From Burkholderiales bacterium (GTDB lineage: Bacteria; Pseudomonadota; Gammaproteobacteria; Burkholderiales; JABEVD01): 64,000 nt of DNA. The notes below the pieces were generated by a model that worked only from the letters and a program-made list of their open reading frames with translations, ran no database searches and had not been told where the DNA came from. The DNA lies in the NCBI GenBank assembly GCA_019753155.1, contig JAIELG010000009.1, positions 47,744-111,743 of the forward strand, written 5' to 3'. This document shows, in pieces, positions 987-12,198 of the stretch. The translations under genes were made by a program, and so were the position numbers. How positions within the stretch are numbered: position 1 is the first letter of the stretch; each line of letters starts with the position of its first letter.

Positions 987-1340
987 TCATTGTCGGGGAC
1001 TTCCCAGCTCTCGATCGCCTATCATGGTCCATGCGTGCGAATGTTCAATAGGTTCGATTGCCAGGCGCATCCCCATGGCGCGTAAAATTGCGGACAGTGT
1101 GTTCAGCTCCGGGTTGCCTTTTTCGGACAGAGTGCGATACAGGGTATGTGCATTGACATCGGCTTGGCGTGCCACTTCGGCAACACCGCCGAATGTTTTG
1201 CTCAAGCTTCGCAACGCAATCATCAAGTCGGCTTCGTCGCCATCATGAAGCACAGAGTTCAGATATTCGGCGGCGAGATTTGGATCACGCCGAAACATTT
1301 CTGTCGTTGCTTCTTCATGAGTTCGATCAGTTCTTGCCAT
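987..1340 (-). CDS. Addiction-module antidote protein (HigA-like HTH antitoxin)
   Basis: FRRDPNLAAEYLN..L.DGD...ALRSL...GGVAEVARQADVNAHTLYRTLSEKGNPELNTLSAILRAMGMRL matches the 'probable addiction module antidote' family. A GGAG lies 8 nt upstream of the ATG. Confidence 0.8.
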   Translation of the reverse strand: MARTDRTHEEATTEMFRRDPNLAAEYLNSVLHDGDEADLMIALRSLSKTFGGVAEVARQADVNAHTLYRTLSEKGNPELNTLSAILRAMGMRLAIEPIEHSHAWTMIGDRELGSPRQ

Positions 1341-1348
1341 TTCGTGTT

Positions 1349-1408
1349 CTCCAATCTTTCAGTAGCCCGGTCCCGAAGAGAATCAAGCCAATCCTGATGA
1401 ACCGCATG
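1349..1408 (-). pseudogene. Possible N-terminal remnant of the cognate killer toxin
   Basis: The off-frame translation HAVHQDWLDSLRDRATERLE resembles the F..WL..L.D..A motif at the N-terminus of the toxins normally encoded just upstream of this antitoxin family. It has no start codon and spans about 20 codons. Confidence 0.3.
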
Positions 1409-1418
1409 GGGACGTTCC

Positions 1419-1658
1419 TCAACCGAGTTCCAGGCGCCGCTCGATGCGCTCGATGCGTTCGTTCAGCCGGTCCATGCGGACACCCATGGACGCAGCGATT
1501 TCCTCTGAATGTCCGAAGTCGCGCCGCAGACTGGCGACTGACACTTCCAGGTTTCCAATACGGGTGATGACCTCTTCGAGCTTGCGCTCGATGCGGTCTT
1601 GTCCCGCCTGAAAGCGCTTGAGGTGTTCGAGGATAATGTTCTCGGTGTTCTCAGTCAT
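1419..1658 (-). CDS. Small coiled-coil hypothetical protein (79 aa)
   Basis: A clean ORF with AGGTGA 9 nt upstream of the ATG. The sequence has heptad-like, E/R/L-rich character and no family is recognised. Confidence 0.5.
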   Translation of the reverse strand: MTENTENIILEHLKRFQAGQDRIERKLEEVITRIGNLEVSVASLRRDFGHSEEIAASMGVRMDRLNERIERIERRLELG

Positions 1659-1750
1659 TTGGTCCGGTCACCTGTTATGGGTTAATCGGTAATGGATAAT
1701 CTGGTACATTTTTATTTTAGCTTATAAGCGAATATATGCAAGAGCGATTT

Positions 1751-2806
1751 TTATCCCAGCTTCTTCGCCAGATCCCTTGCCTTCAAGTGCGTATACCGCT
1801 TCAGCATCTGCAAGGTTTTGTGACCAGTGATCGAGGCCACTTCCATCATGTCAAATTTGCCTGACTCGAACAGGCGGGAAGCGGCTTCGTGACGAAGATC
1901 ATGGAAGCGGACGCCTGAAAGAAACCCATCTAAAGCAGCCCGCTCTTCTTTCTCGCAATCTGCTTTATAGTTCCTTTGTGCACGCTCGATCGCATGCCCC
2001 CAGGATTGCACAACAGCACTTTGAGTGGTCGGAAACACTCTCCCGTTTATGGATCGGGGCAAACCCTGCAAAAGCGCTATGGCACGAGAGGAAAGCGGTA
2101 CGCCACGGTTTTCATCATTTTTTGCATCACGGACAAGTAAAATCTTGTCCTGCAAATCAACGTCCCTCCATTCCAGTTTTAGCAGCTCACCTTGCCGCAT
2201 TGCGGTTTCCAGGGCAATTACAGCTATAGGAAGGATCCACGCGTTGGATAAATCCCCCTTGCCTGAATCAGCCAAGGCAGCCATCAAGTACATTTCCTCA
2301 TCACCTTCCAGCCGACGATCGCGCGCATTATCAACCTTGGGTTTACGGACCATCATGACAGGGTTCATAACGCCCATCCCCCATTCTCTTGTTGCCGTGG
2401 TGTATAAATGGGAGAGTATGGCCAGATATTTCTGAACAGTCGATGCAGCGGCTCCTGCTGAAAGCATCTCATCCCGGTATGCCGCTATATCCGCAGGGCG
2501 GATGCTGGCAATGAATCGGGAGGATAAGGGATGCCGCATCAACTTGCCTATTTTGAGCGTTTCCTCCTTTGCTCCCTTTTTCGTGACAGTCACTTCGTTG
2601 AGGTACCGCTCAAGAGCCTCCTTGATGGTCGTTGACTCCGCTTCCGATCTGTCGATAAAAACGCCGCGATCCATTTCATGCTCAACCATCCTTGCCCAGG
2701 CTTCTGCATCCACCCTGGTTTCGAGCGTCTTGGTTTGATACGGGTAGCCCTTGCGCCTGATTTCGACTTGCCACTGATAATCGCCGCGCTTCCTGAAAGT
2801 CGCCAT
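1751..2806 (-). CDS. int: Tyrosine-type site-specific integrase (phage integrase family)
   Basis: The C-terminal catalytic motifs HDLRHEAASRL and ITGHKTLQMLKRYTH are present. The gene is adjacent to a tRNA fragment. Confidence 0.9.
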   Translation of the reverse strand: MATFRKRGDYQWQVEIRRKGYPYQTKTLETRVDAEAWARMVEHEMDRGVFIDRSEAESTTIKEALERYLNEVTVTKKGAKEETLKIGKLMRHPLSSRFIASIRPADIAAYRDEMLSAGAAASTVQKYLAILSHLYTTATREWGMGVMNPVMMVRKPKVDNARDRRLEGDEEMYLMAALADSGKGDLSNAWILPIAVIALETAMRQGELLKLEWRDVDLQDKILLVRDAKNDENRGVPLSSRAIALLQGLPRSINGRVFPTTQSAVVQSWGHAIERAQRNYKADCEKEERAALDGFLSGVRFHDLRHEAASRLFESGKFDMMEVASITGHKTLQMLKRYTHLKARDLAKKLG

Positions 2807-2817
2807 TATCGCCCCTC

Positions 2818-2838
2818 ATTACGACAAATTTACGACAA
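2818..2838 (+). repeat. Tandem direct repeat TTACGACAAA x2 between the int start and the att site; candidate arm-type or autoregulatory site
   Basis: TTACGACAAA at 2818-2827 and again at 2829-2838, beginning 12 nt from the integrase start codon. Confidence 0.4.
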
Positions 2839-2906
2839 AAACCCATAATTGAAATGTATATCACGCTGTAAGCCGCGTCAATACTAGCTTTATAGAAATC
2901 GAAGAG

Positions 2907-2956
2907 AGGGACTCATAATCCCTTGGTCCACGGTTCAAGTCCGTGCGGACCCACCA
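2907..2956 (+). tRNA. tRNA-Met (anticodon CAT), 3' fragment only (anticodon arm to CCA); att repeat, not a functional gene
   Basis: The fragment reads: anticodon stem AGGGA/TCCCT with loop CTCATAA, variable loop TGGTC, T-arm CACGG-TTCAAGT-CCGTG, acceptor 3' strand CGGACCC, discriminator A, then CCA. No complementary GGGTCCG 5' strand or D-arm lies upstream. Confidence 0.75.
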
Positions 2957-2962
2957 ACAAAA

Positions 2963-2994
2963 CCCCTGTAAATCATAAGTTTGCAGGGGTTTTT
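2963..2994 (+). terminator. Intrinsic terminator following the tRNA fragment
   Basis: CCCCTGTAAA...TTTGCAGGGG forms a stem with one mismatch and is followed by TTTTT. Confidence 0.6.
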
Positions 2995-3069
2995 CATTTC
3001 TACTGACCTACCCCTGGCTAAACTTGCAGACGAGGCCCTCGCCGAGCATGTGGCCGGGAAGACTCAGTC

Positions 3070-3516: not shown

Positions 3517-3729
3517 ATGCGATACGCCATTGTCATCGAAAATGCCGGAAACAACTTCTCTGCTTATGCGCCTGACCTCCCTGGTTGTGTAGCTACCGGA
3601 GCAACCCTGGAAGAAGCCGAGCGCGAAATTCGTGAAGCCATCGCATTCCATATCGTTGGTCTTCGGGAAGATGGCCTGCCTGTTCCATTACCTACAAGCC
3701 AGGTCGAGTACATTGAAGTCGCGGCATAA
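3517..3729 (+). CDS. hicB: HicB-family antitoxin (UPF0150)
   Basis: MRYAIVIENAGNNFSAYAPDLPGCVATGATLEEAEREIREAIAFH... is the typical HicB N-terminal domain. AGGAG lies upstream of the ATG. Confidence 0.85.
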   Translation: MRYAIVIENAGNNFSAYAPDLPGCVATGATLEEAEREIREAIAFHIVGLREDGLPVPLPTSQVEYIEVAA

Positions 3730-4001: not shown

Positions 4002-4346
4002 TTAGAACGCCACCAAAACAGGCTCGTCGGCGATTTCGTACTGGCAGGCAAGACGCCACCTGGGCGGGATGTCCTTCAATACATGCGATTCGCTTTCCTC
4101 GCGGCTCATCTTTCCGGCGCGAAGCAATTCACGCCGCTCGATATCGTTCAGGCTGACCACCCTGGCGCTCCTGCGCATGGGCGCAACTTTTACGGCACAG
4201 GAACCGCACTTCCCCTCCCCGCAAATGCAGGTCTTGGGGAGATTGTAGCGCTCCATCAGCTTGAGCAGGGTGACATGGCTATTCTCCGGCACCTCGACTA
4301 CCAGCCGCTCCCGCATGGGAGGCGTAAGAAAAGTGACCGTAACCAT
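4002..4346 (-). CDS. [2Fe-2S] ferredoxin, Shethna protein II (FeSII)-like, copy 2
   Basis: The Cys cluster is C.CGEGKCGSC...RLACQ and the C-terminus is DIPPRWRLACQYEIADEPVLVAF. GGGGTGA lies 5 nt before the ATG. It is the last gene of the nifHDK string. Confidence 0.8.
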   Translation of the reverse strand: MVTVTFLTPPMRERLVVEVPENSHVTLLKLMERYNLPKTCICGEGKCGSCAVKVAPMRRSARVVSLNDIERRELLRAGKMSREESESHVLKDIPPRWRLACQYEIADEPVLVAF

Positions 4347-4370
4347 GATTCACCCCATCGACTTAAGTGA

Positions 4371-4718
4371 TCAGAACTTCACCAGGATGTCCTCGTTGCG
4401 CACGATATACTGGCAAGCCAGGCGCCACGGCGGTGGAATATCCTTGAGTTCGGCATCTTCGATCTGCTGCTTGCTGATTTTTCCGGCAAGCTTCAAGACC
4501 GTCTTTTCCTTTTCGGTCAGGTGCATGCCCATGGGCTGCCTGTCCGACAGGACACTGACTTCCAGCGCGCAGGAACCGCATTCACCGTTTTCGCACTCGA
4601 AATCGACCGGAATCTTGTTCGCCCTGGCGGTCGCCAGCAGGGTGCTGCAGTCTCCTGCGGTGGCGTAAACCGTGACATCCTTTTTCATCTTGGGTGAACT
4701 GAATGTTACATTAGCCAT
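4371..4718 (-). CDS. [2Fe-2S] ferredoxin, Shethna protein II (FeSII)-like, copy 1
   Basis: MANVTFSSPKM...FECENGECGSCALEV...LTEKEKTVLK..GK...DIPPPWRLACQYIVRNEDILVKF is colinear, from my recollection, with Azotobacter FeSII. I chose the internal ATG at 4718, which has an AAGGAA RBS, over the longer ORF. Confidence 0.85.
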   Translation of the reverse strand: MANVTFSSPKMKKDVTVYATAGDCSTLLATARANKIPVDFECENGECGSCALEVSVLSDRQPMGMHLTEKEKTVLKLAGKISKQQIEDAELKDIPPPWRLACQYIVRNEDILVKF

Positions 4719-4738
4719 GATGTTCCTTCTATAAAAAG

Positions 4739-4766
4739 AGAGGCGGGGGCAAAGCCCCCAACCTCT
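4739..4766 (-). terminator. Stem-loop plus U-rich tract just after the nifK stop; partial terminator or mRNA-stabilising hairpin
   Basis: The RNA sense reads GAGGUUGGGGGC-UUU-GCCCCCGCCUCUC followed by UUUUUA. The downstream ferredoxin genes imply read-through. Confidence 0.45.
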
Positions 4767-4768
4767 TG

Positions 4769-6307
4769 TCAACGGATGATGTCGAAGCTGTAATCGCTCT
4801 TCGCCGGGATGTTGGTGGTGTTGTCCATCACGTCAAAAATCTTGTCGAGGATCGTGATCAGAACGTTCATTCCACCCTGATAGCCCCATACCGGACGACG
4901 GTGGTGATGGTGGCGATCGAAAACAGGGAAACCGATGCGGATGAGCGGCGTTCCGGTATCACGATCGAGGTACTTCCCGTAGGTGTTGCCGATCAGGAAA
5001 TCGACCGGTTCGGTGAAGAGCAGGGAACGCATGTGCCAGAGATCCTTCCCTGCATAGGCATGGCAACCCTTGCCGAAAGGCGAGCTTTCGAACAGTTCGT
5101 TCATTTTTGCTTCCCATTCCTTGCCGCCGTTGGTGGAAAGAACATGGACAGGCTCCGCGCCGAGTTCCATGAGAAATGCGGCAAGTCCGAGCGTGAGATC
5201 CGGGTCGCCGTAGATCGCAAATTTCTTGCCGTGGATATGTGCGCTCGAATCCGCAATCGCATCCACCAGACGTCCGCGCTCCTTGGTCAACTCCGTGGGA
5301 ATAGTCTTGCCCGTGATCCTGGAAACTTCCATCAGGAACTTGTCCGTGGCGGCGACGCCCACGGGATGATTGAAGGCGGCGACTTCCTGCCCTTTTTCCG
5401 CGGCATAGGCGAGCGTCTTCTCGCTGCAGAACTGCTGCATCGCAATCGTGGCCTTGGCGTTCAGCGCTGCCGCCGTATCTTCGAGCGTGGTGCCGCCGTC
5501 GTACATGCGGAACTCGCCGTCAGCCGGGGTATCGAACACTTCGCTGTTGTCGGCGAGTATCGTATGTTCGACGCCCATGAGGTCGAACATGCGCTTCACT
5601 TCGCGCAGGTTGCCCACGGTATAGCCGTCGAAACCGCCGATGAAGTTGATCTTGTCGTTGGGGGTGCGTTCCTTGCCTTCCCAGAAGTTGGAAAGGATGC
5701 CCCTGAGCGCATTGTCGTAACCCGTGATATGGCTGCCGACGAATGCAGGCGTATGGGCGTAGGGGACGGGATAGTCCTCGGGAACGCTGCCCTTGTTTTT
5801 CGCGTTGGTGATGAAGCCGTTCAGGTCGTCCCCGATCACTTCGGCCATGCAGGTCGTGGAAACGGCAATCATCTTCGGCTTGTACATGGCATAGGTGTTG
5901 GCCAACCCGTCGATCATGTTGTTGAGTCCGCCGAACACCGCAGCATCTTCCGTCATCGAGGAGGACACGCAGGAAGAAGGTTCCTTGAAATGACGGGAAA
6001 GATGGCTGCGATAATAGGCCACGCAGCCTTGCGAACCATGCACGAAAGGCATCGTCTTTTCGAAGCCGACTGCGACGAAAACAGCGCCCAAAGGCTGGCA
6101 TGCCTTGGCCGGGTTGACGGTCAGCGCTTCGCGGCTGAAATTCTTCTCCCGGTATTCCCAGGATTTCGTCCATTCGCGGGTCTCTTCGACCTTGTCCATG
6201 GGATGGGGAAATTCGAAATTCTTTTTCTTGCTTTCGAACATCTCGATGTATTCCGGCTCGCGGAACAGGTTGAAATGGTCGAGTACGTTGTTCGAACTCT
6301 GAGTCAT
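4769..6307 (-). CDS. nifK: Nitrogenase MoFe protein beta chain
   Basis: 512 aa. It has the N-terminal ...[38 protein letters not shown] motif and follows nifD. Confidence 0.97.
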
Positions 6308-6337
6308 GATAATCTCCTAAATGTCAGTCAAGCGTAA

Positions 6338-7795
6338 TCAGGCTTTTGCCCAGGGCGCGCGGGTCAGGCCCCATACGGGGTTGTTGATCGCCATGTCCAT
6401 GTCCCGTGCGAAAATGGCAAAGCCGTCGTAGCCGTGGTAAGGACCGGAATAATCCCAGGAATGCATCTGGCGGAAAGGCACGCCCATTTTCTGGAACACG
6501 TATTTCTCCTTGATCCCGGAACCGACGAGATCGGGCTGAACCTTCTCGACGAATTTCTCGAATTCGTAGCCGGTCACGTCGTCATAAATCAGGGTGCCAT
6601 CCTTCACGTAATGGGTGGTGCGCTGATAGTCGTCGTTGTGTCCGAACTCGTACCCGGTTCCGACCACTTCCATGCCCAGATCCTCATAGGCGCCGATCAC
6701 ATGGCGCGGCCTCAAGCCTCCCACGAACAGCATGACGGTCTTGCCTTCGAGACGCGGCTTGTACTTGTCGATGACGGCCTGCATCATCGGCTTATACTTG
6801 GCGATCACTTTCTCGGCGCCTTCCTTGATCTTGTCGTCGAAATGGCTTGCGATTTCGCGCAGGGAAGCCTCGATCTTGGACGGTCCGAAGAAATTGTACT
6901 CGACCCATGGAATCCCGTATTTCTCTTCCATGTGGCGAGAAATGTAGTTCATCGAGCGATAGCAGTGCAGCACGTTGAGCTTGGCTTTCGGCGTATTCTC
7001 GAGCTCGGCGATACTGCCGTCGCCCGACCACTGGGCGATCACCCTCAGACCCATTTCCTCGAGCAGGATGCGGGAAGCCCATGCGTCCCCGCCGATGTTG
7101 TAGTCGCCGATAATCGCGACATCATAGGGGGTGCCCACGAACTCCGGGTGCTTGTTGTCGGACTTGTCGAAAACCCAGTCGCGCACCGCGTCGTTTGCGA
7201 TATGGTGGCCAAGCGACTGGGAGACGCCGCGAAAACCCTCGCAGCGCACCGGGACAATGGTCTTGCCGCCGAATTCCTTGGATTTCTTCTTGGAAACAGC
7301 CTCGATGTCGTCGCCGATGAGTCCGATCGGGCACTCGGACTGGACCGTGATCCCCTTGTTGAGGGGAAAAAGATCCTCGATTTCGTCCATGATCTTCTCG
7401 AGCTTCTTGTCCCCGCCGAAGACGATGTCCTTTTCCTGGAAGTCGGAAGTGAACTGCATGGTAACGAAGCTGTCGATCCCGGTCGTGCCGATGTAATAGT
7501 TGCGCCTCGCAGCCCAGGAATACTGGCCGCATCCAACGGGACCATGGCTGATGTGGATCATATCCTTGATGGGACCCCATACCACGCCCTTGGATCCCGC
7601 ATAGGCGCAGCCGCGTATGGTCATGACACCGGGAATGGATTTGATGTTGGACTTGACGTTGCAATCGGTCTTGCCTTCCTCATAGACATTGAGGTGCTTG
7701 GCGCGCCGCTTCGCAGTTTTATCCGGATAGACTTCGAGAACTTCCTTGATCAGATCCTGGTTTCTGGCTTTGACTTGCTCTACTGTCAGGCTCAT
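6338..7795 (-). CDS. nifD: Nitrogenase MoFe protein alpha chain
   Basis: 485 aa. Motifs include ...[33 protein letters not shown]... and ...HCYRSMNY..., and the gene sits in nifH-D-K order. Confidence 0.97.
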
Positions 7796-7829
7796 TTTGC
7801 CCTCCTAAAAAATGATGAAAAATGATTTC

Positions 7830-7916
7830 GAGATCCGGGAGATCTCTGTAAATGGCGCGGCCATGCAGCGCCATTTGCAGAGCCCTCCCAGGAACGCCCG
7901 CGGCATGCCGCGGGCG
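7830..7916 (-). promoter_or_regulatory. Three consecutive stem-loops in the nifH-nifD intergenic region
   Basis: The stems are GAGATC-N5-GATCTC (7830-7846), AAATGGCGC-N9-GCGCCATTT (7850-7876) and CGCCCGCGG-catg-CCGCGGGCG (7895-7916). Confidence 0.55.
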
Positions 7917-7923
7917 CATTCCT

Positions 7924-8838
<915 letters not shown>

Positions 8839-8856
8839 TTACCGTTAAAAAGAAAA

Positions 8857-8872
8857 CATGCCCTTGCCGTTC
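8857..8872 (-). promoter_or_regulatory. Weaker second sigma-54-like element (TGGAAC-N5-GGGCA) about 35 nt upstream of the nifH ATG
   Basis: GG-N10-GC spacing is correct but the -12 region is non-consensus. Confidence 0.25.
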
Positions 8873-8970
8873 CACAAACAATGAATCCGCCGGCACAAAA
8901 CCTGGAACACTTAGATCTTCTTCTTATCGGTCACCAATCCGGCAAAACATTCATGATGCACTTTCCATAA

Positions 8971-8985
8971 AGCAACGAGCGTGCC
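8971..8985 (-). promoter_or_regulatory. Sigma-54 (-24/-12) promoter of nifH
   Basis: The reverse complement reads TGGCAC-GCTCG-TTGC, an exact consensus, about 148 nt upstream of the nifH ATG. Confidence 0.8.
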
Positions 8986-9055
8986 ATGCATCAATTAAAT
9001 ATACATATCCATGTATTCATTGAATATTTTGTCTATATGGCGGAATGCCAGCAGT

Positions 9056-9071
9056 TGTCACAAACGCAACA
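9056..9071. promoter_or_regulatory. NifA-type upstream activator sequence TGT-N10-ACA
   Basis: TGTCACAAACGCAACA. It is the only perfect TGT-N10-ACA between the two divergent sigma-54 promoters. An imperfect TGT-N10-GCA follows at 9085. Confidence 0.6.
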
Positions 9072-9143
9072 ACACTGTAGGGAACCTTGCAAACAAATCC
9101 GGACTAAATTAGTCATAGATACACAAAACGCGATAAAAACCCA

Positions 9144-9159
9144 TGGAACGGATTTTGCA
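9144..9159 (+). promoter_or_regulatory. Sigma-54 (-24/-12) promoter of the divergent four-gene operon
   Basis: TGGAAC-GGATT-TTGCA lies 37 nt upstream of the ATG at 9196. Confidence 0.65.
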
Positions 9160-9195
9160 TAGTCTTCAAGAATCATTCAATTCGCGGGAGCAAGC

Positions 9196-9591
9196 ATGCA
9201 AATCGGTGTAGACAGTGTCAGGGCGGTGGAAAACAAGCGCATATTCGTCGTGGACGGCGACGAGATTACCCGCGCGGTGCTTCAATTCATGCTGCACGAC
9301 GAAAACGAAACACACGATCTTCCCAGTCTCGACGCGGCACTCGCCAAGAGCGTCGACTGGAAACCCGATCTTCTGATTCTCGGAATCGGGATCGTCAGCG
9401 AGAACGGGGTGGGCATACTCGAATCGCTCAAATCCATGATTCAGGGGCTTTCCATACTGCTCGTGACGGATACGGAGCGACTCCCATTTGCCGCCGCCTG
9501 CCTGAAGTCCGGCGCAGACGATATCGTTGCGAAACCCCTCACCATCGAAATCGTGAGAGGAAAAGTGGATGCGCTCCTGCGCGGGAATTGA
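9196..9591 (+). CDS. Receiver-domain protein lacking the phospho-acceptor Asp (pseudo-receiver)
   Basis: The CheY-like layout is present: VVDGDE acidic pocket, LLVT (Thr) and AKP (Lys). The beta3 end reads PDLLILGIG where DLLILD is expected. Confidence 0.8.
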   Translation: MQIGVDSVRAVENKRIFVVDGDEITRAVLQFMLHDENETHDLPSLDAALAKSVDWKPDLLILGIGIVSENGVGILESLKSMIQGLSILLVTDTERLPFAAACLKSGADDIVAKPLTIEIVRGKVDALLRGN

Positions 9592-9596
9592 AGACG

Positions 9597-9995
9597 ATGG
9601 CCACGATTTATTTCTTTGAAAAACCCGGGTGCGCCAACAATGCCCGGCAGAAAAAGCTGCTCGCAGGTTCCGGGCATACCGTGATCGCAAAAAACATCCT
9701 GACCCACCATTGGACGGGCGAAACGCTCGCGGCTTTCTTCGGCTCCCGCCCGGTCCACTCCTGGTTCAACCGCGCTTCCCCCAGGATCAAGTCCGGGGAA
9801 ATCGTCCCGGAAAAAATTTCCTCCGAAGAAGCCCTTGCGTTCATGCTGAAAGATCCCCTGCTCATCCGTCGCCCGCTCATGCAGGTCGAAGACCGCTGCG
9901 AAGCCGGGTTCGACCCGGATCTGGTTCATGCCTGGATAGGCCTCTCCGAGAAGCTGACCGATCCTGAAACCTGCCTGCGCATCGAGGATAAATGA
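9597..9995 (+). CDS. ArsC/Spx-fold 'nitrogenase-associated protein' (possibly NifO-like)
   Basis: YFFEKPGCANNARQKKLL..SGH......L....W....L..FF...PV..WFN..SPRIKSGEI.P......AL..ML.DPLLIRRPLM matches the ArsC-like nitrogenase-associated family. An alternative TTG start is at 9588. Confidence 0.8.
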   Translation: MATIYFFEKPGCANNARQKKLLAGSGHTVIAKNILTHHWTGETLAAFFGSRPVHSWFNRASPRIKSGEIVPEKISSEEALAFMLKDPLLIRRPLMQVEDRCEAGFDPDLVHAWIGLSEKLTDPETCLRIEDK

Positions 9996-11449
9996 CCGTA
10001 TTCTCCTACCACGAACGCACCAAGCACCGGCTCGAACGCTATGCAGCAGGCCCGGAGACGCTCGACTGGTCCATGCAGCCCAATCCTTTCAGGGAATTCA
10101 TCGGTGCGAAAAAAACCGCCCTTCCCCTTTCGGCGCACAGGATTTCAGCGGGCGAGCGGCCCGCCCTGGAATCGGTCGGGGCGCTGCTTCAGCTTTCCAT
10201 GGGGCTTTCCGCCTGGAAGGAATACGGGCCGGACAGGTGGGCTTTGCGCTGCAATCCTTCCAGCGGCAACCTGCATCCGACGGAATGCTACATCCTCGCC
10301 CTGAATGTTCCGGGAATCGAAAACGGCCTTCACCACTATGCGAGCCTGGATCACAGTCTGGAACTGCGCTGCGGCGTCGAATGGACGCGGGAGACCAGGC
10401 TTTTCGTGGGACTTTCCTCCATCCACTGGCGGGAAGCCTGGAAATACGGCGAGCGCGCTTTCCGCTACTGCCAGCTCGATATCGGGCATGCATTGGGCGC
10501 GCTGCGACACGCCGCTCTGGCGCTCGGTTGGGGACTGAAAATGCTGGATACCCCGGAAACCGTCCTGGGGACTGAGCGGCTCGAAGATTTTGCCGGAGCG
10601 GAGAAGGAGGAATTCGATATTCTGCTCGAGGCCGGTTCCGGATGCGCAACCGATTTCCCCGAACTCGAAATGACGAACTGGACGGGGCAAGCCAACTGCC
10701 TCGATCCTCACCCCATGTACAAGTGGCCGGTTATCGATGAAGTGGCAGCTGCAACCCGTCATCCTCTTCCCCACGAAAACCCTCCCTCCGCCGGATATTC
10801 GGGCGCGATTTACCCCGTGGATCTGCTGCTCGGACGGCGCAGCGCGCAGCAATTCGATCCCGCCTTCACGATGAAAAAAGAGCATTTTTTTCGCATGCTG
10901 GAGCAGTTGGTCCGCCTCTGGGACATATGGGATTTCGAGTCCAGAGTGCATCCCGTTTTCTTTTTGCACCGCGTGGAAGCGATGGCGCCCGGCCTCTATG
11001 TTCTGCCGAGAAGCGATACCGCCCTATCGAAGCTCAAGGCTCACTTCAGGTCCGACTTCCTCTGGGAACAGGCTGGGCACGATCTGTACCTGCTCGCCAG
11101 GGGGGATTTCAGGGCTGTCGCCAAAACCGTCAGCTGCCGCCAGGCGATCGCCTCCGACAGTTGTTTTGCGATGGGCATGCTCGCCGAATTCGAGGAAACG
11201 ATAGGACCCGACCCCTGGCGCTATCGCCAGTTGCACTGGGAAGCCGGGCTCATGGGTCATGCGCTCTACCTGGAAGCCGAAGCCGCCGGGCTGCGCGGAA
11301 CCGGCATAGGCTGTTTTTTCGACGACGCCTTTCACGACCTTCTCGGACTCTCGGGAAAAACTTTCCAGTCCCTTTACCATTTCACCGTGGGCATGCCGCT
11401 GGTGGATTCCAGGATACTCACCCTCCCGCCCTATCCAAAAGGAGAATAA
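9992..11449 (+). CDS. SagB/ThcOx-like two-lobed nitroreductase-family dehydrogenase
   Basis: 485 aa. The N-terminal Y.ERTKH...YA.GP..LDW..QPNPFR signature is present, with a second nitroreductase-like half ending GIGCFFDD..H..LGL. Its ATG overlaps the upstream TGA. Confidence 0.75.
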   Translation: MTVFSYHERTKHRLERYAAGPETLDWSMQPNPFREFIGAKKTALPLSAHRISAGERPALESVGALLQLSMGLSAWKEYGPDRWALRCNPSSGNLHPTECYILALNVPGIENGLHHYASLDHSLELRCGVEWTRETRLFVGLSSIHWREAWKYGERAFRYCQLDIGHALGALRHAALALGWGLKMLDTPETVLGTERLEDFAGAEKEEFDILLEAGSGCATDFPELEMTNWTGQANCLDPHPMYKWPVIDEVAAATRHPLPHENPPSAGYSGAIYPVDLLLGRRSAQQFDPAFTMKKEHFFRMLEQLVRLWDIWDFESRVHPVFFLHRVEAMAPGLYVLPRSDTALSKLKAHFRSDFLWEQAGHDLYLLARGDFRAVAKTVSCRQAIASDSCFAMGMLAEFEETIGPDPWRYRQLHWEAGLMGHALYLEAEAAGLRGTGIGCFFDDAFHDLLGLSGKTFQSLYHFTVGMPLVDSRILTLPPYPKGE

Positions 11450-11451
11450 AC

Positions 11452-12198
11452 ATGACAGTTCAAAGACTATGCGCAGACGAAGTACAGGGCCTCATGCAGA
11501 AGGAAAACCTGCTGCTTCTGGATACCCGTGACAGGGCATCCTTCGACAAGGGACATATCCCGTCCGCGATGCATGCATCGACCGCGGAAATCGAAAACCT
11601 GCTCATGCGGATTCCGAAAGGCACCCCCATCCTCATTTACTGTTATCACGGCAACGCCAGCCTCGTTCACGGGCAGATGTTCGTCGATTTCGGCTTCATG
11701 GAGGTCTACAGCCTCAACGGAGGCTACGAAGGCTGGATGCTCGCCCGGAAGGAAGCCGGGAAAAGCCGCCTGCAATCCTGGCTGGACGAACAGGGCTTTT
11801 CAGGCATCGATTCGCTCATCGATGGGGGCATCACTCCGCTGATGCATGCCGCGCGCCATGGGGACGCATCGATCACGGCCGAACTCCTGATGTCGGGGGC
11901 GAATGCCGCGCCCAGGAACAGCGACGGCAATCAGGCACTCTGGTTCGCCTGCTACAGCGGCAATCTCGCCATCATGGATCTGCTGCTTTCGGCGGGCTGC
12001 GCTGTTGACAACATGAACGACAACGGCTCGACCTGCCTCATGTATGCCGCCTCCAGCGGGAAAGACAGTGTGGTGGAAAAGCTCCTAGAAGCCGGGGCGG
12101 ATATCGGCCTTGCGAATCTCGACGATTACACCGCCCTGGACATGGCATCGAGCCTGGGCGCGCTCGAGCTTCTCCGCGGCAGGAAAGTATTTTCCTGA
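11452..12198 (+). CDS. Rhodanese domain fused to ankyrin repeats
   Basis: The rhodanese part has LLLLDTRD...F..GHIP.A and the active-site loop IYCYHGNAS. At least three ANK repeats follow (TPLMHAARHGD..., NQALWFACYSGN..., STCLMYAASSGK...). AAGGAGA lies 5 nt before the ATG. The ORF-track N-terminal extension is the alternate frame of the previous gene. Confidence 0.85.
   Translation: MTVQRLCADEVQGLMQKENLLLLDTRDRASFDKGHIPSAMHASTAEIENLLMRIPKGTPILIYCYHGNASLVHGQMFVDFGFMEVYSLNGGYEGWMLARKEAGKSRLQSWLDEQGFSGIDSLIDGGITPLMHAARHGDASITAELLMSGANAAPRNSDGNQALWFACYSGNLAIMDLLLSAGCAVDNMNDNGSTCLMYAASSGKDSVVEKLLEAGADIGLANLDDYTALDMASSLGALELLRGRKVFS

Follow-up and report, generated by a model that had tools for sequence, protein, structure and literature searches.

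A nifH-divergent accessory operon linking a DraB/NifO-type protein to an Asp-less receiver, a SagB-like tandem flavoprotein and a rhodanese-ankyrin protein

The DNA analysed here, referred to as the window, is a stretch of 64,000 nucleotides from a Burkholderiales bacterium (assembly GCA_019753155.1, contig JAIELG010000009.1, positions 47,744 to 111,743). It contains four consecutive genes, termed g1 to g4, which are transcribed divergently from nifHDK and encode a receiver domain protein without phospho-acceptor aspartate (g1), an ArsC-like protein of the DraB/NifO type (g2), a SagB/ThcOx-family flavoprotein with two nitroreductase-fold halves (g3) and a rhodanese fused to ankyrin repeats (g4; Table 1). 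We are highly confident that these genes constitute a genuine, evolutionarily maintained nif accessory operon, and the motifs ahead of g1 indicate that it is probably dependent on NifA and sigma-54.

The tight packing of the four genes had already been described in an original prediction made from the sequence alone, and it was confirmed here. The ATG of g2 lies 5 nt beyond the stop codon of g1 (9589-9591), the stop of g2 and the start of g3 overlap in an ATGA at 9992-9995, and the TAA of g3 (11447-11449) is separated by a spacer of 2 nt from the ATG of g4, which begins at 11452. A Shine-Dalgarno sequence, GGGAG, can be read at 9186-9190 before g1. All four domain assignments of that prediction were recovered as well, namely PF00072 for g1, TIGR01616/PF03960 for g2, TIGR03605 together with PF00881 for g3 and PF00581 together with ankyrin repeats for g4. 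Identical proteins are publicly annotated under MBY0577938-41 as response regulator, hypothetical protein, SagB/ThcOx family dehydrogenase and ankyrin repeat domain-containing protein, respectively.

Table 1. Positions of the operon, its candidate promoter motifs and neighbouring genes in the window (aa, amino acids; UAS, upstream activator sequence)
Feature	Position (nt)	Strand	Description
g1	9196-9591	+	131 aa; single-domain Asp-less (pseudo-)receiver, first gene of the operon
g2	9597-9995	+	132 aa; DraB/NifO-type ArsC-like, thioredoxin-fold 'nitrogenase-associated protein'
g3	9992-11449	+	485 aa; tandem nitroreductase-fold SagB/ThcOx-family flavoprotein
g4	11452-12198	+	248 aa; GlpE-type rhodanese fused to about four ankyrin repeats
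Rhodanese part of g4	~11473-11739	+	Cys64 in CYHGNAS
Ankyrin part of g4	~11803-12186	+	
Sigma-54-type -24/-12 element	9144-9159	+	TGGAACGGATTTTGCA; 37 nt before the ATG of g1
NifA-type UAS	9056-9071		TGT-N10-ACA; ~80 bp from the -24 element of each divergent promoter
nifH sigma-54 promoter	8986-8971	-	TGGCACGCTCGTTGCT; ~150 nt upstream of the nifH start codon
nifH	7924-8823	-	Divergent partner operon, from translation
nifD	6338-7795	-	Divergent partner operon, from translation
nifK	4769-6307	-	Divergent partner operon, from translation
2Fe-2S ferredoxin-like gene, first of tandem pair	4371-4772	-	133 aa; PF00111, 34.3 bits
2Fe-2S ferredoxin-like gene, second of tandem pair	4002-4346	-	114 aa; PF00111, 27.0 bits
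HicB-like antitoxin	3517-3729		Left flank
Tyrosine integrase	1751-2806		Left flank
Addiction-module antidote	987-1340		Left flank

Relatives of the operon were collected by a pattern scan over one genome per GTDB species, which returned at least 597 species with a g3 relative, and the best 80 loci (designated by L numbers) were fetched. Their neighbourhoods were analysed by conservation-guided calling of open reading frames and clustering, followed by annotation of the recurrent families with hidden Markov models (HMMs). Genes for the receiver, the ArsC-like protein, the SagB-like protein and the rhodanese-ankyrin protein occur in the order of the window in 23 of the 80 related loci (tblastn), and nifH or nifHDK is placed divergently upstream wherever the contig reaches that far. 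These full-order loci are found in Alphaproteobacteria (Xanthobacter, Methylocella, Methylocapsa, Hyphomicrobium, Rhizomicrobium, Beijerinckiaceae), in Betaproteobacteria (Sulfuriferula, Thiobacillus) and in Gammaproteobacteria (Methylocaldum, Methylococcaceae). The two proteins most similar to g3, with 78% identity in a soil metagenome and 62% in Ferrovum myxofaciens, are both encoded in the same four-gene operon, which in Ferrovum adjoins nifZ, iscA, nifB and nifA, and a neighbour-joining tree places the g3 of the window in a clade of nifH-linked genes.

Within the fetched flanks, strict nif genes were present at a distance of up to 10 kb in 50 of the 80 loci, several of the others being cut by contig ends. 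When the receiver gene was sampled independently, it was divergent from nifHDK in all three loci checked. Co-occurrence with nif in related genomes, which had been set beforehand as a test of the original prediction, was thus observed on three counts: the full gene order, the two closest relatives and the receiver gene. NifH and NifD of the window are 84-94% and NifK is 66-85% identical to those of the loci classed as type A (tblastn).

The spacer between nifH and g1 (8824-9195, 372 bp) contains three motifs, a sigma-54-type element facing each of the two operons and a TGT-N10-ACA site, the only one in the intergenic region, so that the UAS would be shared with nifH as had been suggested from the sequence alone. 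A GG-N10-GC -24/-12 element preceded at about 80-150 bp by TGT-N10-ACA, the arrangement of a nif promoter, can therefore be recognized ahead of g1. The predicted -24/-12 element has been retained in related genomes: when the region ahead of the receiver gene is searched for sigma-54-like sites, nGGAAyG-N4-TTGCT comes out best in the window and in 22 of the 23 full-order loci, the exception being L056 with TGGCACGACCATCGCG. In a shuffle test performed for each locus, the observed sigma-54 score was reached in at most 8.5% of the trials and mostly in no more than 3%. A nifH-type TGGCAyG-N4-TTGC promoter is present in 21 of these 23 loci (L016 and L017 lack it), and between one and four TGT-N10-ACA sites are located in the same place in each of the 23. 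From these motifs we infer, on good grounds, that g1 to g4 would be co-regulated with nifH by a NifA-type activator.

Some further features of the divergent region were noted. The nifH promoter implies an untranslated leader of about 138 nt, which is matched by no Rfam family; in the related loci the distance from this promoter to the nifH start, or to the contig end if nifH is truncated, is similar (95-262 nt). An Rrf2-family gene is inserted between nifH and the receiver gene in L012 (7439-7867), L013 (7395-7847), L084 (798-1253) and L089 (6229-6702); it has its own sigma-54 promoter in L012 and L013 and its own pair of TGT-N10-ACA sites in L013. This gene of betaproteobacterial loci looks like an Fe-S- or redox-sensing regulator within the divergent region.

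The first protein, g1, matches the receiver family PF00072 with 46.8 bits. Its beta-3 strand ends in DLLILG, and the phospho-acceptor position, which was read by eye against CheY and then checked on a 120-sequence alignment without CheY, is occupied by glycine in all of the 120 best homologues, in agreement with the earlier description of a receiver that lacks the phospho-acceptor aspartate. The aspartate at the end of beta-3 by which response regulators are recognized is hence absent, and canonical two-component signalling by g1 was ruled out by the invariant glycine. In addition, g1 has no output domain and no histidine kinase gene is located nearby. Lys113, the equivalent of CheY K109, is kept in all 120 homologues and one aspartate of the acidic pocket is retained. 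The homologues are all single-domain proteins of 130-174 aa, begin with an invariant MQIGV and share an almost invariant helix, LQFMLHDENETH. Such conservation indicates a maintained family of pseudo-receivers rather than a decayed gene.

Like other pseudo-receivers, g1 keeps the receiver fold, the conserved lysine and one aspartate of the acidic pocket while it lacks the phospho-acceptor. Receiver domains without this aspartate work via protein binding and not via phosphorylation. Compared with other pseudo-receivers, however, the g1 family is distinct in being tightly conserved, single-domain and always beside nifH; in all the loci examined, its gene and nifH point away from each other. We found no study of any member of this family in the literature.

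The second protein, g2, reaches 167.4 bits with TIGR01616 ('nitrogenase-associated protein'; curated NCBIfam cut-off 109), residues 2-126 covering positions 1-126 of the 126 in the model. The linkage to nitrogenase that characterizes this family is also seen, g2 being located in the nifH-divergent operon, 774 bp from the start of nifH, and likewise in the related loci. Cys12, which is part of a PGC motif, is conserved in 21 of 21 sequences and the C-terminal Cys126 in 95%. A relationship to regulators that bind RNA polymerase (Spx/MgsR) is weak, with 27.9 bits being far below the family cut-offs.

Since g2 also belongs to the Pfam family ArsC (PF03960), one might suspect that genes for the detoxification of arsenate or another oxyanion came to lie beside nifH by chance. 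Rhodaneses do occur in some ars operons. In the g2 family the RRP motif is kept, whereas the arginine of 'DRCE', a candidate for the third arsenate-binding arginine, varies. Models specific for ars proteins gave no score on g2, and no arsB, acr3 or arsR genes are present. We consider this explanation scarcely credible and have discarded it because of the match to a nif-specific HMM, the synteny with nifH across three proteobacterial classes and the conserved sigma-54 promoter that heads the operon.

DraB of Azospirillum brasilense, encoded in the draTGB operon, has been reclassified as NifO-like with an undefined function, and NifO of Azotobacter vinelandii is homologous to it (PMC5249018). 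The gene most often seen next to nifO/draB genes is nifH (PMC5249018, Table 4). As for their effects, A. vinelandii mutants lacking NifO do not fix nitrogen with low nitrate, and the DraB homologue of Rhodospirillum rubrum seems to regulate DraG (PMC5249018).

The largest protein of the operon, g3, consists of two halves. The N-terminal half (residues 59-182) carries a SagB domain, with 97.7 bits to TIGR03605 at a cut-off of 78.4, and the C-terminal half (residues 281-467) matches the nitroreductase family PF00881 with 47.6 bits. An alignment of 58 sequences revealed several invariant segments: PSSGNLHP, embedded in a nearly invariant NPSSGNLHPTE; WREAWKYGERxFRY as part of an almost invariant HWREAWKYGERAFRYCQLD with K151-Y152; RRSAQxFD (282-289), a motif of the type that contacts the phosphate of flavin mononucleotide (FMN); and GTGIGC within GTGIGCFFDD. 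Among the cysteines C382 and C441 are invariant, and C87 and C160 are kept in at least 90%. The fold, the RRSxR-type motif and the glycine-rich C-terminal loop place g3 in the nitroreductase superfamily and predict that it binds FMN. Because RRS, PSSG, Lys-Tyr and GIGC were each found once and in different halves (second copies were not systematically searched), the two halves may share one composite active site.

An AlphaFold2 model of g3 (predicted local distance difference test 87.7, predicted TM score 0.91) matched 121 chains of the PDB at E<=1e-3, almost all of the 50 listed being nitroreductases. The sole full-length structural match is 3EO7 with a TM score of 0.69, followed by ThcOx, BmdC and McbC and then by ordinary nitroreductases. 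3EO7, the putative nitroreductase Ava_2154 of Anabaena variabilis, shares the tandem two-domain architecture and is also the only solved relative of g3 found by sequence (E 7e-24, 20% identity). It has, however, Arg-Tyr in the place of Lys-Tyr and neither a known nif linkage nor fusion partners; as a structural-genomics target without known function it does not explain g3.

The combination of a SagB domain above its cut-off with the Lys-Tyr pair, which is typical of azoline dehydrogenases, raises the question of whether g3 oxidizes azolines in a ribosomal peptide or a nitrogenase-related protein, as do the dehydrogenases that mature thiazole/oxazole-modified microcins (TOMMs) and other ribosomally synthesized and post-translationally modified peptides (RiPPs). 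The nitroreductase fold and the Lys-Tyr pair are indeed shared with the azoline dehydrogenases SagB, ThcOx, McbC and BmdC (oxidases of TOMM, cyanobactin and nonribosomal peptide pathways), and the last three are the nearest characterized folds, with Foldseek E values of 1e-8 to 1e-5 at a sequence identity of only 14-19%. In contrast to these enzymes, g3 has a second nitroreductase domain and a nif context and is not accompanied by a cyclodehydratase, a RiPP recognition element (RRE) or a precursor; its tandem architecture resembles 3EO7 and not the RRE-containing TOMM enzymes, and its score with TIGR04511 is 60 at a cut-off of 240.

A partner YcaO/cyclodehydratase and a nearby precursor peptide, which are expected of a TOMM locus, were not seen: no YcaO/cyclodehydratase, docking protein or precursor-like gene was found among the genes annotated in the window, for YcaO/cyclodehydratase about 10 kb on either side, or in the recurrent families annotated around the 80 loci. 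The claim that the SagB-like protein stands without such a partner therefore held, and the peptide-maturation reading, in our opinion very improbable, was rejected on account of this absence from the annotated neighbourhoods.

The fourth protein, g4, starts with a rhodanese domain (PF00581, residues 8-96, 69.8 bits) with the active-site loop C64-YHGNAS, so that the six-residue loop of rhodaneses, which starts at the catalytic cysteine, can be read from the translation. The score with the GlpE equivalog is 76.3 bits at a cut-off of 102, for which reason g4 is better called GlpE-like than GlpE. The ankyrin repeats extend over residues 120-241 approximately (Ank_2, 74 bits). g4 has 628 homologues, and 120 of 120 among the matches listed show the fused rhodanese-ankyrin architecture. 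The rhodanese cysteine is kept in 77% of the family, which includes ankyrin-only members without a rhodanese domain.

Several natural gene fusions connect the products of the operon and preserve its gene order. Twenty of the 120 best g3 homologues carry an N-terminal ArsC-like domain (ArsC-SagB, about 655-715 aa), and in one of these 120 a rhodanese is joined to the C-terminus of the SagB-like protein, the ankyrin part being encoded by a gene of its own behind it. Both kinds of fusion argue for a physical complex, and we infer that g2, g3 and g4 would form one. In L036 (6417-8819) and L045 (2596-4981) two consecutive glutaredoxin-family genes stand immediately before the SagB-like gene, in the position of the ArsC-like gene, suggesting that the flavoprotein works with a thiol partner of the thioredoxin fold. 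The glutaredoxin pair of these two loci is preceded by a gene for an HdrD/CCG-type Fe-S protein.

The module is not a fixed four-gene unit but modular. Its constant nifH-divergent core is the receiver together with the ArsC-like protein, and the SagB-like protein with rhodanese and/or ankyrin domains is a frequent, mobile companion of this core. Between the receiver and the ArsC-like gene, draT-draG is inserted in L002, L004, L021, L084 (a metagenome-assembled genome of Hydrogenophilales) and L088 (Methylomagnum), draG alone in L012 and L013, and a truncated globin together with DUF6156 in Methylococcaceae. L089 and L090 have the receiver and the ArsC-like gene without the SagB-like or rhodanese-ankyrin genes. 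In Methylococcus capsulatus Bath the receiver gene is followed by an insertion sequence (IS) element, three small genes, the ArsC-like gene and the SagB-like gene, a rhodanese-ankyrin gene being absent. The IS element (DDE transposase) lies at L081 5090-6190, immediately after the pseudo-receiver gene; the ArsC-like and SagB-like genes behind it may thereby have lost their coupling to the sigma-54 promoter.

Other arrangements centre on the SagB-like gene. In the Methylobacter type it follows a NifZ-domain gene, divergent from iscA-nifU-nifS-nifV-cysE-nifW. Here ArsC-like genes occur in another nif-region setting, about 4-7 kb from the SagB-like gene, and are 59-61% identical to g2. Gallionellaceae show nifEN, nifX or nifX-region genes, ferredoxins (in most), nifZ (in most) and the SagB-like gene, some with an ankyrin-only protein, and the order in Acidithiobacillus ferrooxidans is nifQ, iscA, nifUSV, cysE, nifW, SagB-like and rhodanese-ankyrin. 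Among the proteins encoded by recurrent neighbour families are NifQ, NifZ, NifU, NifS, IscA, a monothiol glutaredoxin, BolA, a 2Fe-2S ferredoxin and a SufT-like protein.

The SagB-like gene is, however, not exclusive to nif neighbourhoods. In Stutzerimonas stutzeri 24a75 (L077 9959-12453) a SagB-like/rhodanese-ankyrin pair, which had been expected in a nif island, is surrounded by nudC, a short-chain dehydrogenase/reductase gene, sohB and acuI instead, and the pair can thus exist outside nif clusters. In about 20 further loci the SagB-like gene has no nif gene within 10 kb and heterogeneous neighbours; no common partner emerged from these neighbourhoods (TIR, CitMHS, cupin, TPR/FIST and methyltransferase genes were seen). 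A side observation concerns the alphaproteobacterial loci L020, L018, L015, L024 and L069, in which a small set of nif-island passengers lies several kb downstream of the SagB-like gene, comprising a truncated globin, DUF6156, a Rieske protein, a glutathione S-transferase, BolA, a SufT-like protein and the families F17 (about 80 aa) and F29 (about 115 aa), both without annotation.

Two known types of nif accessory operon resemble the operon described here. The first is draTGB of A. brasilense and R. rubrum, which lies beside nifHDK (and is transcribed divergently from it in both species) and includes a DraB protein of the TIGR01616 type; the likeness is strengthened by the homologous operon receiver-draT-draG-ArsC-SagB-rhodanese-ankyrin of several Beta- and Gammaproteobacteria. 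In contrast to draTGB, the operon of the window contains neither draT nor draG, begins with a sigma-54 promoter and an Asp-less receiver gene and continues with the SagB-like and rhodanese-ankyrin genes. It represents a dra-less, extended version of the draTGB-type operon.

The second type is nifB-fdxN-nifO-nifQ-rhdN-grx5 of A. vinelandii and PST1302-1306 of Pseudomonas stutzeri A1501, in which a NifO-type protein, a GlpE-type rhodanese and a thiol oxidoreductase come together under NifA/RpoN control. In P. stutzeri these genes (nifB, an ArsC-related gene, nifQ, glpE and grx) are induced 17- to 54-fold under nitrogen-fixing conditions (PMC2820453, Table 1). That operon and the homology of NifO with DraB bear out the precedents in nif clusters to which the original prediction had pointed. 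In contrast to them, the operon of the window is attached to nifH and not to nifB or nifQ, a flavoprotein of 485 aa with a tandem nitroreductase fold takes the place of a glutaredoxin as redox partner, its rhodanese is fused to ankyrin repeats and a pseudo-receiver is added.

As an extension of two known types, with genes that sit unremarked in well-known genomes, the operon is not categorically new. Nevertheless, we have found no description of two of its features, the conserved link of DraB/NifO with a tandem nitroreductase-fold flavoprotein and a rhodanese-ankyrin protein, and the nifH-linked pseudo-receiver with its invariant glycine. The draB paper mentions neither a nitroreductase nor a rhodanese (PMC5249018), and the SagB-like protein of nif clusters appears in the literature as bare table annotations without a function. 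A 'nitroreductase, 558 aa' is listed beside DraT and NifH in the nif cluster of Dechloromonas aromatica (PMC2907700), and an acid-mine-drainage fosmid contains a 1629-bp 'rhodanese domain protein' beside a globin and a sigma-N-dependent 'response regulator' (PMC3912193), this 1629-bp gene probably being a SagB-like entry. The statement that the combination has no described function is in line with this survey, which yielded no functional study.

With regard to function, the draT/draG inserts suggest a regulatory module that controls nitrogenase post-translationally in response to redox state or oxygen, through the DraT/DraG switch or another NifH-directed route, or that acts on nif transcription. 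The flavoprotein would then be a redox sensor and the ankyrin repeats a docking device, alongside the receiver and the protein of the Spx/ArsC fold. In five loci both dra genes lie inside the same operon, and draG in two more; the ArsC-like protein is a DraB, of which the R. rubrum homologue was reported to act on DraG; receiver and ArsC-like protein are the constant part of the module; and the receiver, with 59-88% identity of its 120 best homologues, surpasses the other three proteins in conservation, which together with its constant place beside nifH would fit binding to a very conserved partner. The weak matches of g2 to Spx/MgsR also fit, although these scores remain far below the family cut-offs.

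On the other hand, neither draT nor draG was detected in the 64 kb of the window (tblastn with DraT and DraG of L084) or in the fetched flanks of the alphaproteobacterial type-A loci (L003, L006-L010, L014, L018-L020). A promoter that shares the UAS of nifH implies products made abundantly and in stoichiometric amounts, as is uncommon among regulators, and the active-site cysteine of the rhodanese as well as the neighbouring glutaredoxin, BolA, NifQ, NifU and NifS point to sulfur or cluster chemistry. A regulatory role, the main competitor of the relay described next, is in our view rather unlikely.

The reading that we prefer, tentatively and with somewhat less than even confidence, is that g2, g3 and g4 act as a thiol/persulfide-flavin relay in the service of nitrogenase or its maturation factors, with the ankyrin repeats selecting the client and the pseudo-receiver serving as a regulator or adaptor. 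Having their own sigma-54 promoter and a UAS shared with nifH, the products of the operon would appear together with nitrogenase, and translational coupling through the ATGA overlap and the 2-nt spacer would provide g2, g3 and g4 in matched amounts as one complex. As a thioredoxin-fold protein with a reactive N-terminal and a C-terminal cysteine, g2 could be a redox partner or carrier. g3, which presumably binds FMN, would move two electrons, and the rhodanese cysteine of g4 would bear sulfane sulfur as a persulfide, while the ankyrin repeats would dock the rhodanese to its partner and thereby select the client.

Such a relay might deliver or reduce sulfur, or re-reduce oxidized cysteines or clusters, for nitrogenase or maturation proteins, with NifH, NifQ, NifZ or NifW of oxygen-respiring diazotrophs as candidate clients. 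A putative role of this kind, in sulfur, Mo or redox servicing, had been suggested in the original prediction and is supported to the extent that sequence allows. g1, which cannot be phosphorylated, would be a phosphorylation-independent, protein-binding regulator or adaptor of this nifH-centred operon, which elsewhere includes draT and draG.

A number of observations weigh against this relay. The SagB-like gene occurs in non-nif neighbourhoods (L077, L043, L041, L065 and L067), so that its chemistry need not be nitrogenase-specific, and the loci with receiver and ArsC-like gene alone (L089, L090), like M. capsulatus Bath without the rhodanese-ankyrin gene, indicate that the relay is dispensable or replaceable. 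Azoline dehydrogenases with a Lys-Tyr pair oxidize their substrates and do not reduce persulfides. A regulatory role would be just as compatible with the draT/draG inserts and with the reported action of R. rubrum DraB on DraG. Furthermore, our survey of the literature yielded no expression, biochemical or genetic work on any of the four genes in any organism. Finally, the promoter motifs are not significant alone, since loose versions of the patterns are no more frequent over the whole window than in shuffled sequences (8 against 4.7 expected and 6 against 5.5 expected); it is their location and their conservation that lend them weight.

The carriers seen, without exception Proteobacteria with an oxygen-respiring or microaerophilic way of life (methanotrophs, Xanthobacter, Bradyrhizobium, Gallionella, Thiobacillus, Acidithiobacillus), raise the possibility of a defence against oxygen, oxidants or toxins. 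g3 would in this case be an NAD(P)H oxidase or reductase that protects nitrogenase in aerobes by consuming O2 or detoxifying an inhibitor, and the rhodanese would detoxify cyanide or handle persulfides arising under oxidative stress. The recurrent neighbours truncated globin, Rieske protein, glutathione S-transferase and NifW are compatible with such a role, as is the match of g3 to the fold of ThcOx, for ThcOx-type relatives take O2 as electron acceptor. However, the carriers were sampled by sequence similarity, so that an absence of anaerobes is not established; the ArsC-like fusion and the ankyrin docking domain suggest a protein client over a small-molecule oxidant; and the operon lacks a catalase- or peroxidase-type partner for an oxidase that produces H2O2. 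We regard a defence function as improbable.

A more specific version of the relay, which is speculative and in our judgement unlikely, would make g2-g3-g4 a so far unrecognized, nif-dedicated reductase complex acting flavin-dependently on sulfane sulfur and thiols. It would be responsible for the supply or the repair of sulfur or cysteine ligands in the metalloclusters of nitrogenase, with a nitroreductase-fold enzyme replacing glutaredoxin or ferredoxin and the pseudo-receiver acting as a phosphorylation-independent partner in control at the level of NifH. Possible clients of the complex include the cluster of the Fe protein, Mo-S on NifQ, P-cluster maturation with NifZ/NifW and the extra sulfur of the cofactor. 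If true, this would give DraB/NifO a biochemical function.

The locus touches on questions that are decades old, namely the role of NifO/DraB, the role of nif-linked rhodaneses and the delivery, reduction and repair of sulfur and thiols for nitrogenase in aerobes. It ties DraB/NifO via a recurrent gene fusion to a conserved flavoprotein, and this flavoprotein in turn to a rhodanese-ankyrin protein. The outcome is a testable three-protein complex and a new family of nifH-linked pseudo-receivers, and the carriers include culturable and long-studied organisms such as M. capsulatus Bath, Xanthobacter, A. ferrooxidans and Dechloromonas. Should the module matter in air-respiring hosts, it would be of relevance for the transfer of nitrogen fixation to aerobic hosts; should deletions be silent, it would be one more dispensable passenger of nif islands.

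The nif segment of the window is short, extending from about 4002 to 12198. It probably ends on the nifK side with the two ferredoxin-like genes, which would close the nifHDK operon and may encode nitrogenase-specific electron carriers or Shethna-type protective proteins. Members of the same ferredoxin-like family also adjoin nifK in L071, and genes with a Fer2 domain come after it in L089 and L090. Downstream of g4 a terminator scan revealed nothing convincing, and Rfam and tRNA scans gave no match in or near the operon. The sole Rfam match in the window is the housekeeping small RNA of the bacterial signal recognition particle (RF00169, 29568-29666, minus strand, 78.3 bits).

None of the genes nifE, nifN, nifB, nifU, nifS, nifV, nifQ, nifW, nifZ and nifX was found in the 64 kb. 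Together with the genes of mobile-element type on the left side (Table 1), this suggests that the small block of nifHDK and accessory operon may have been relocated. At the left boundary, where no tRNA gene is located, the GC content goes down to 0.50-0.52 (1001-3000). The right flank consists of genes for a major facilitator superfamily (MFS) transporter, a MarR regulator, a resistance-nodulation-division efflux system and housekeeping functions, and its MFS-MarR part is common to the window and the closest relative, L085.

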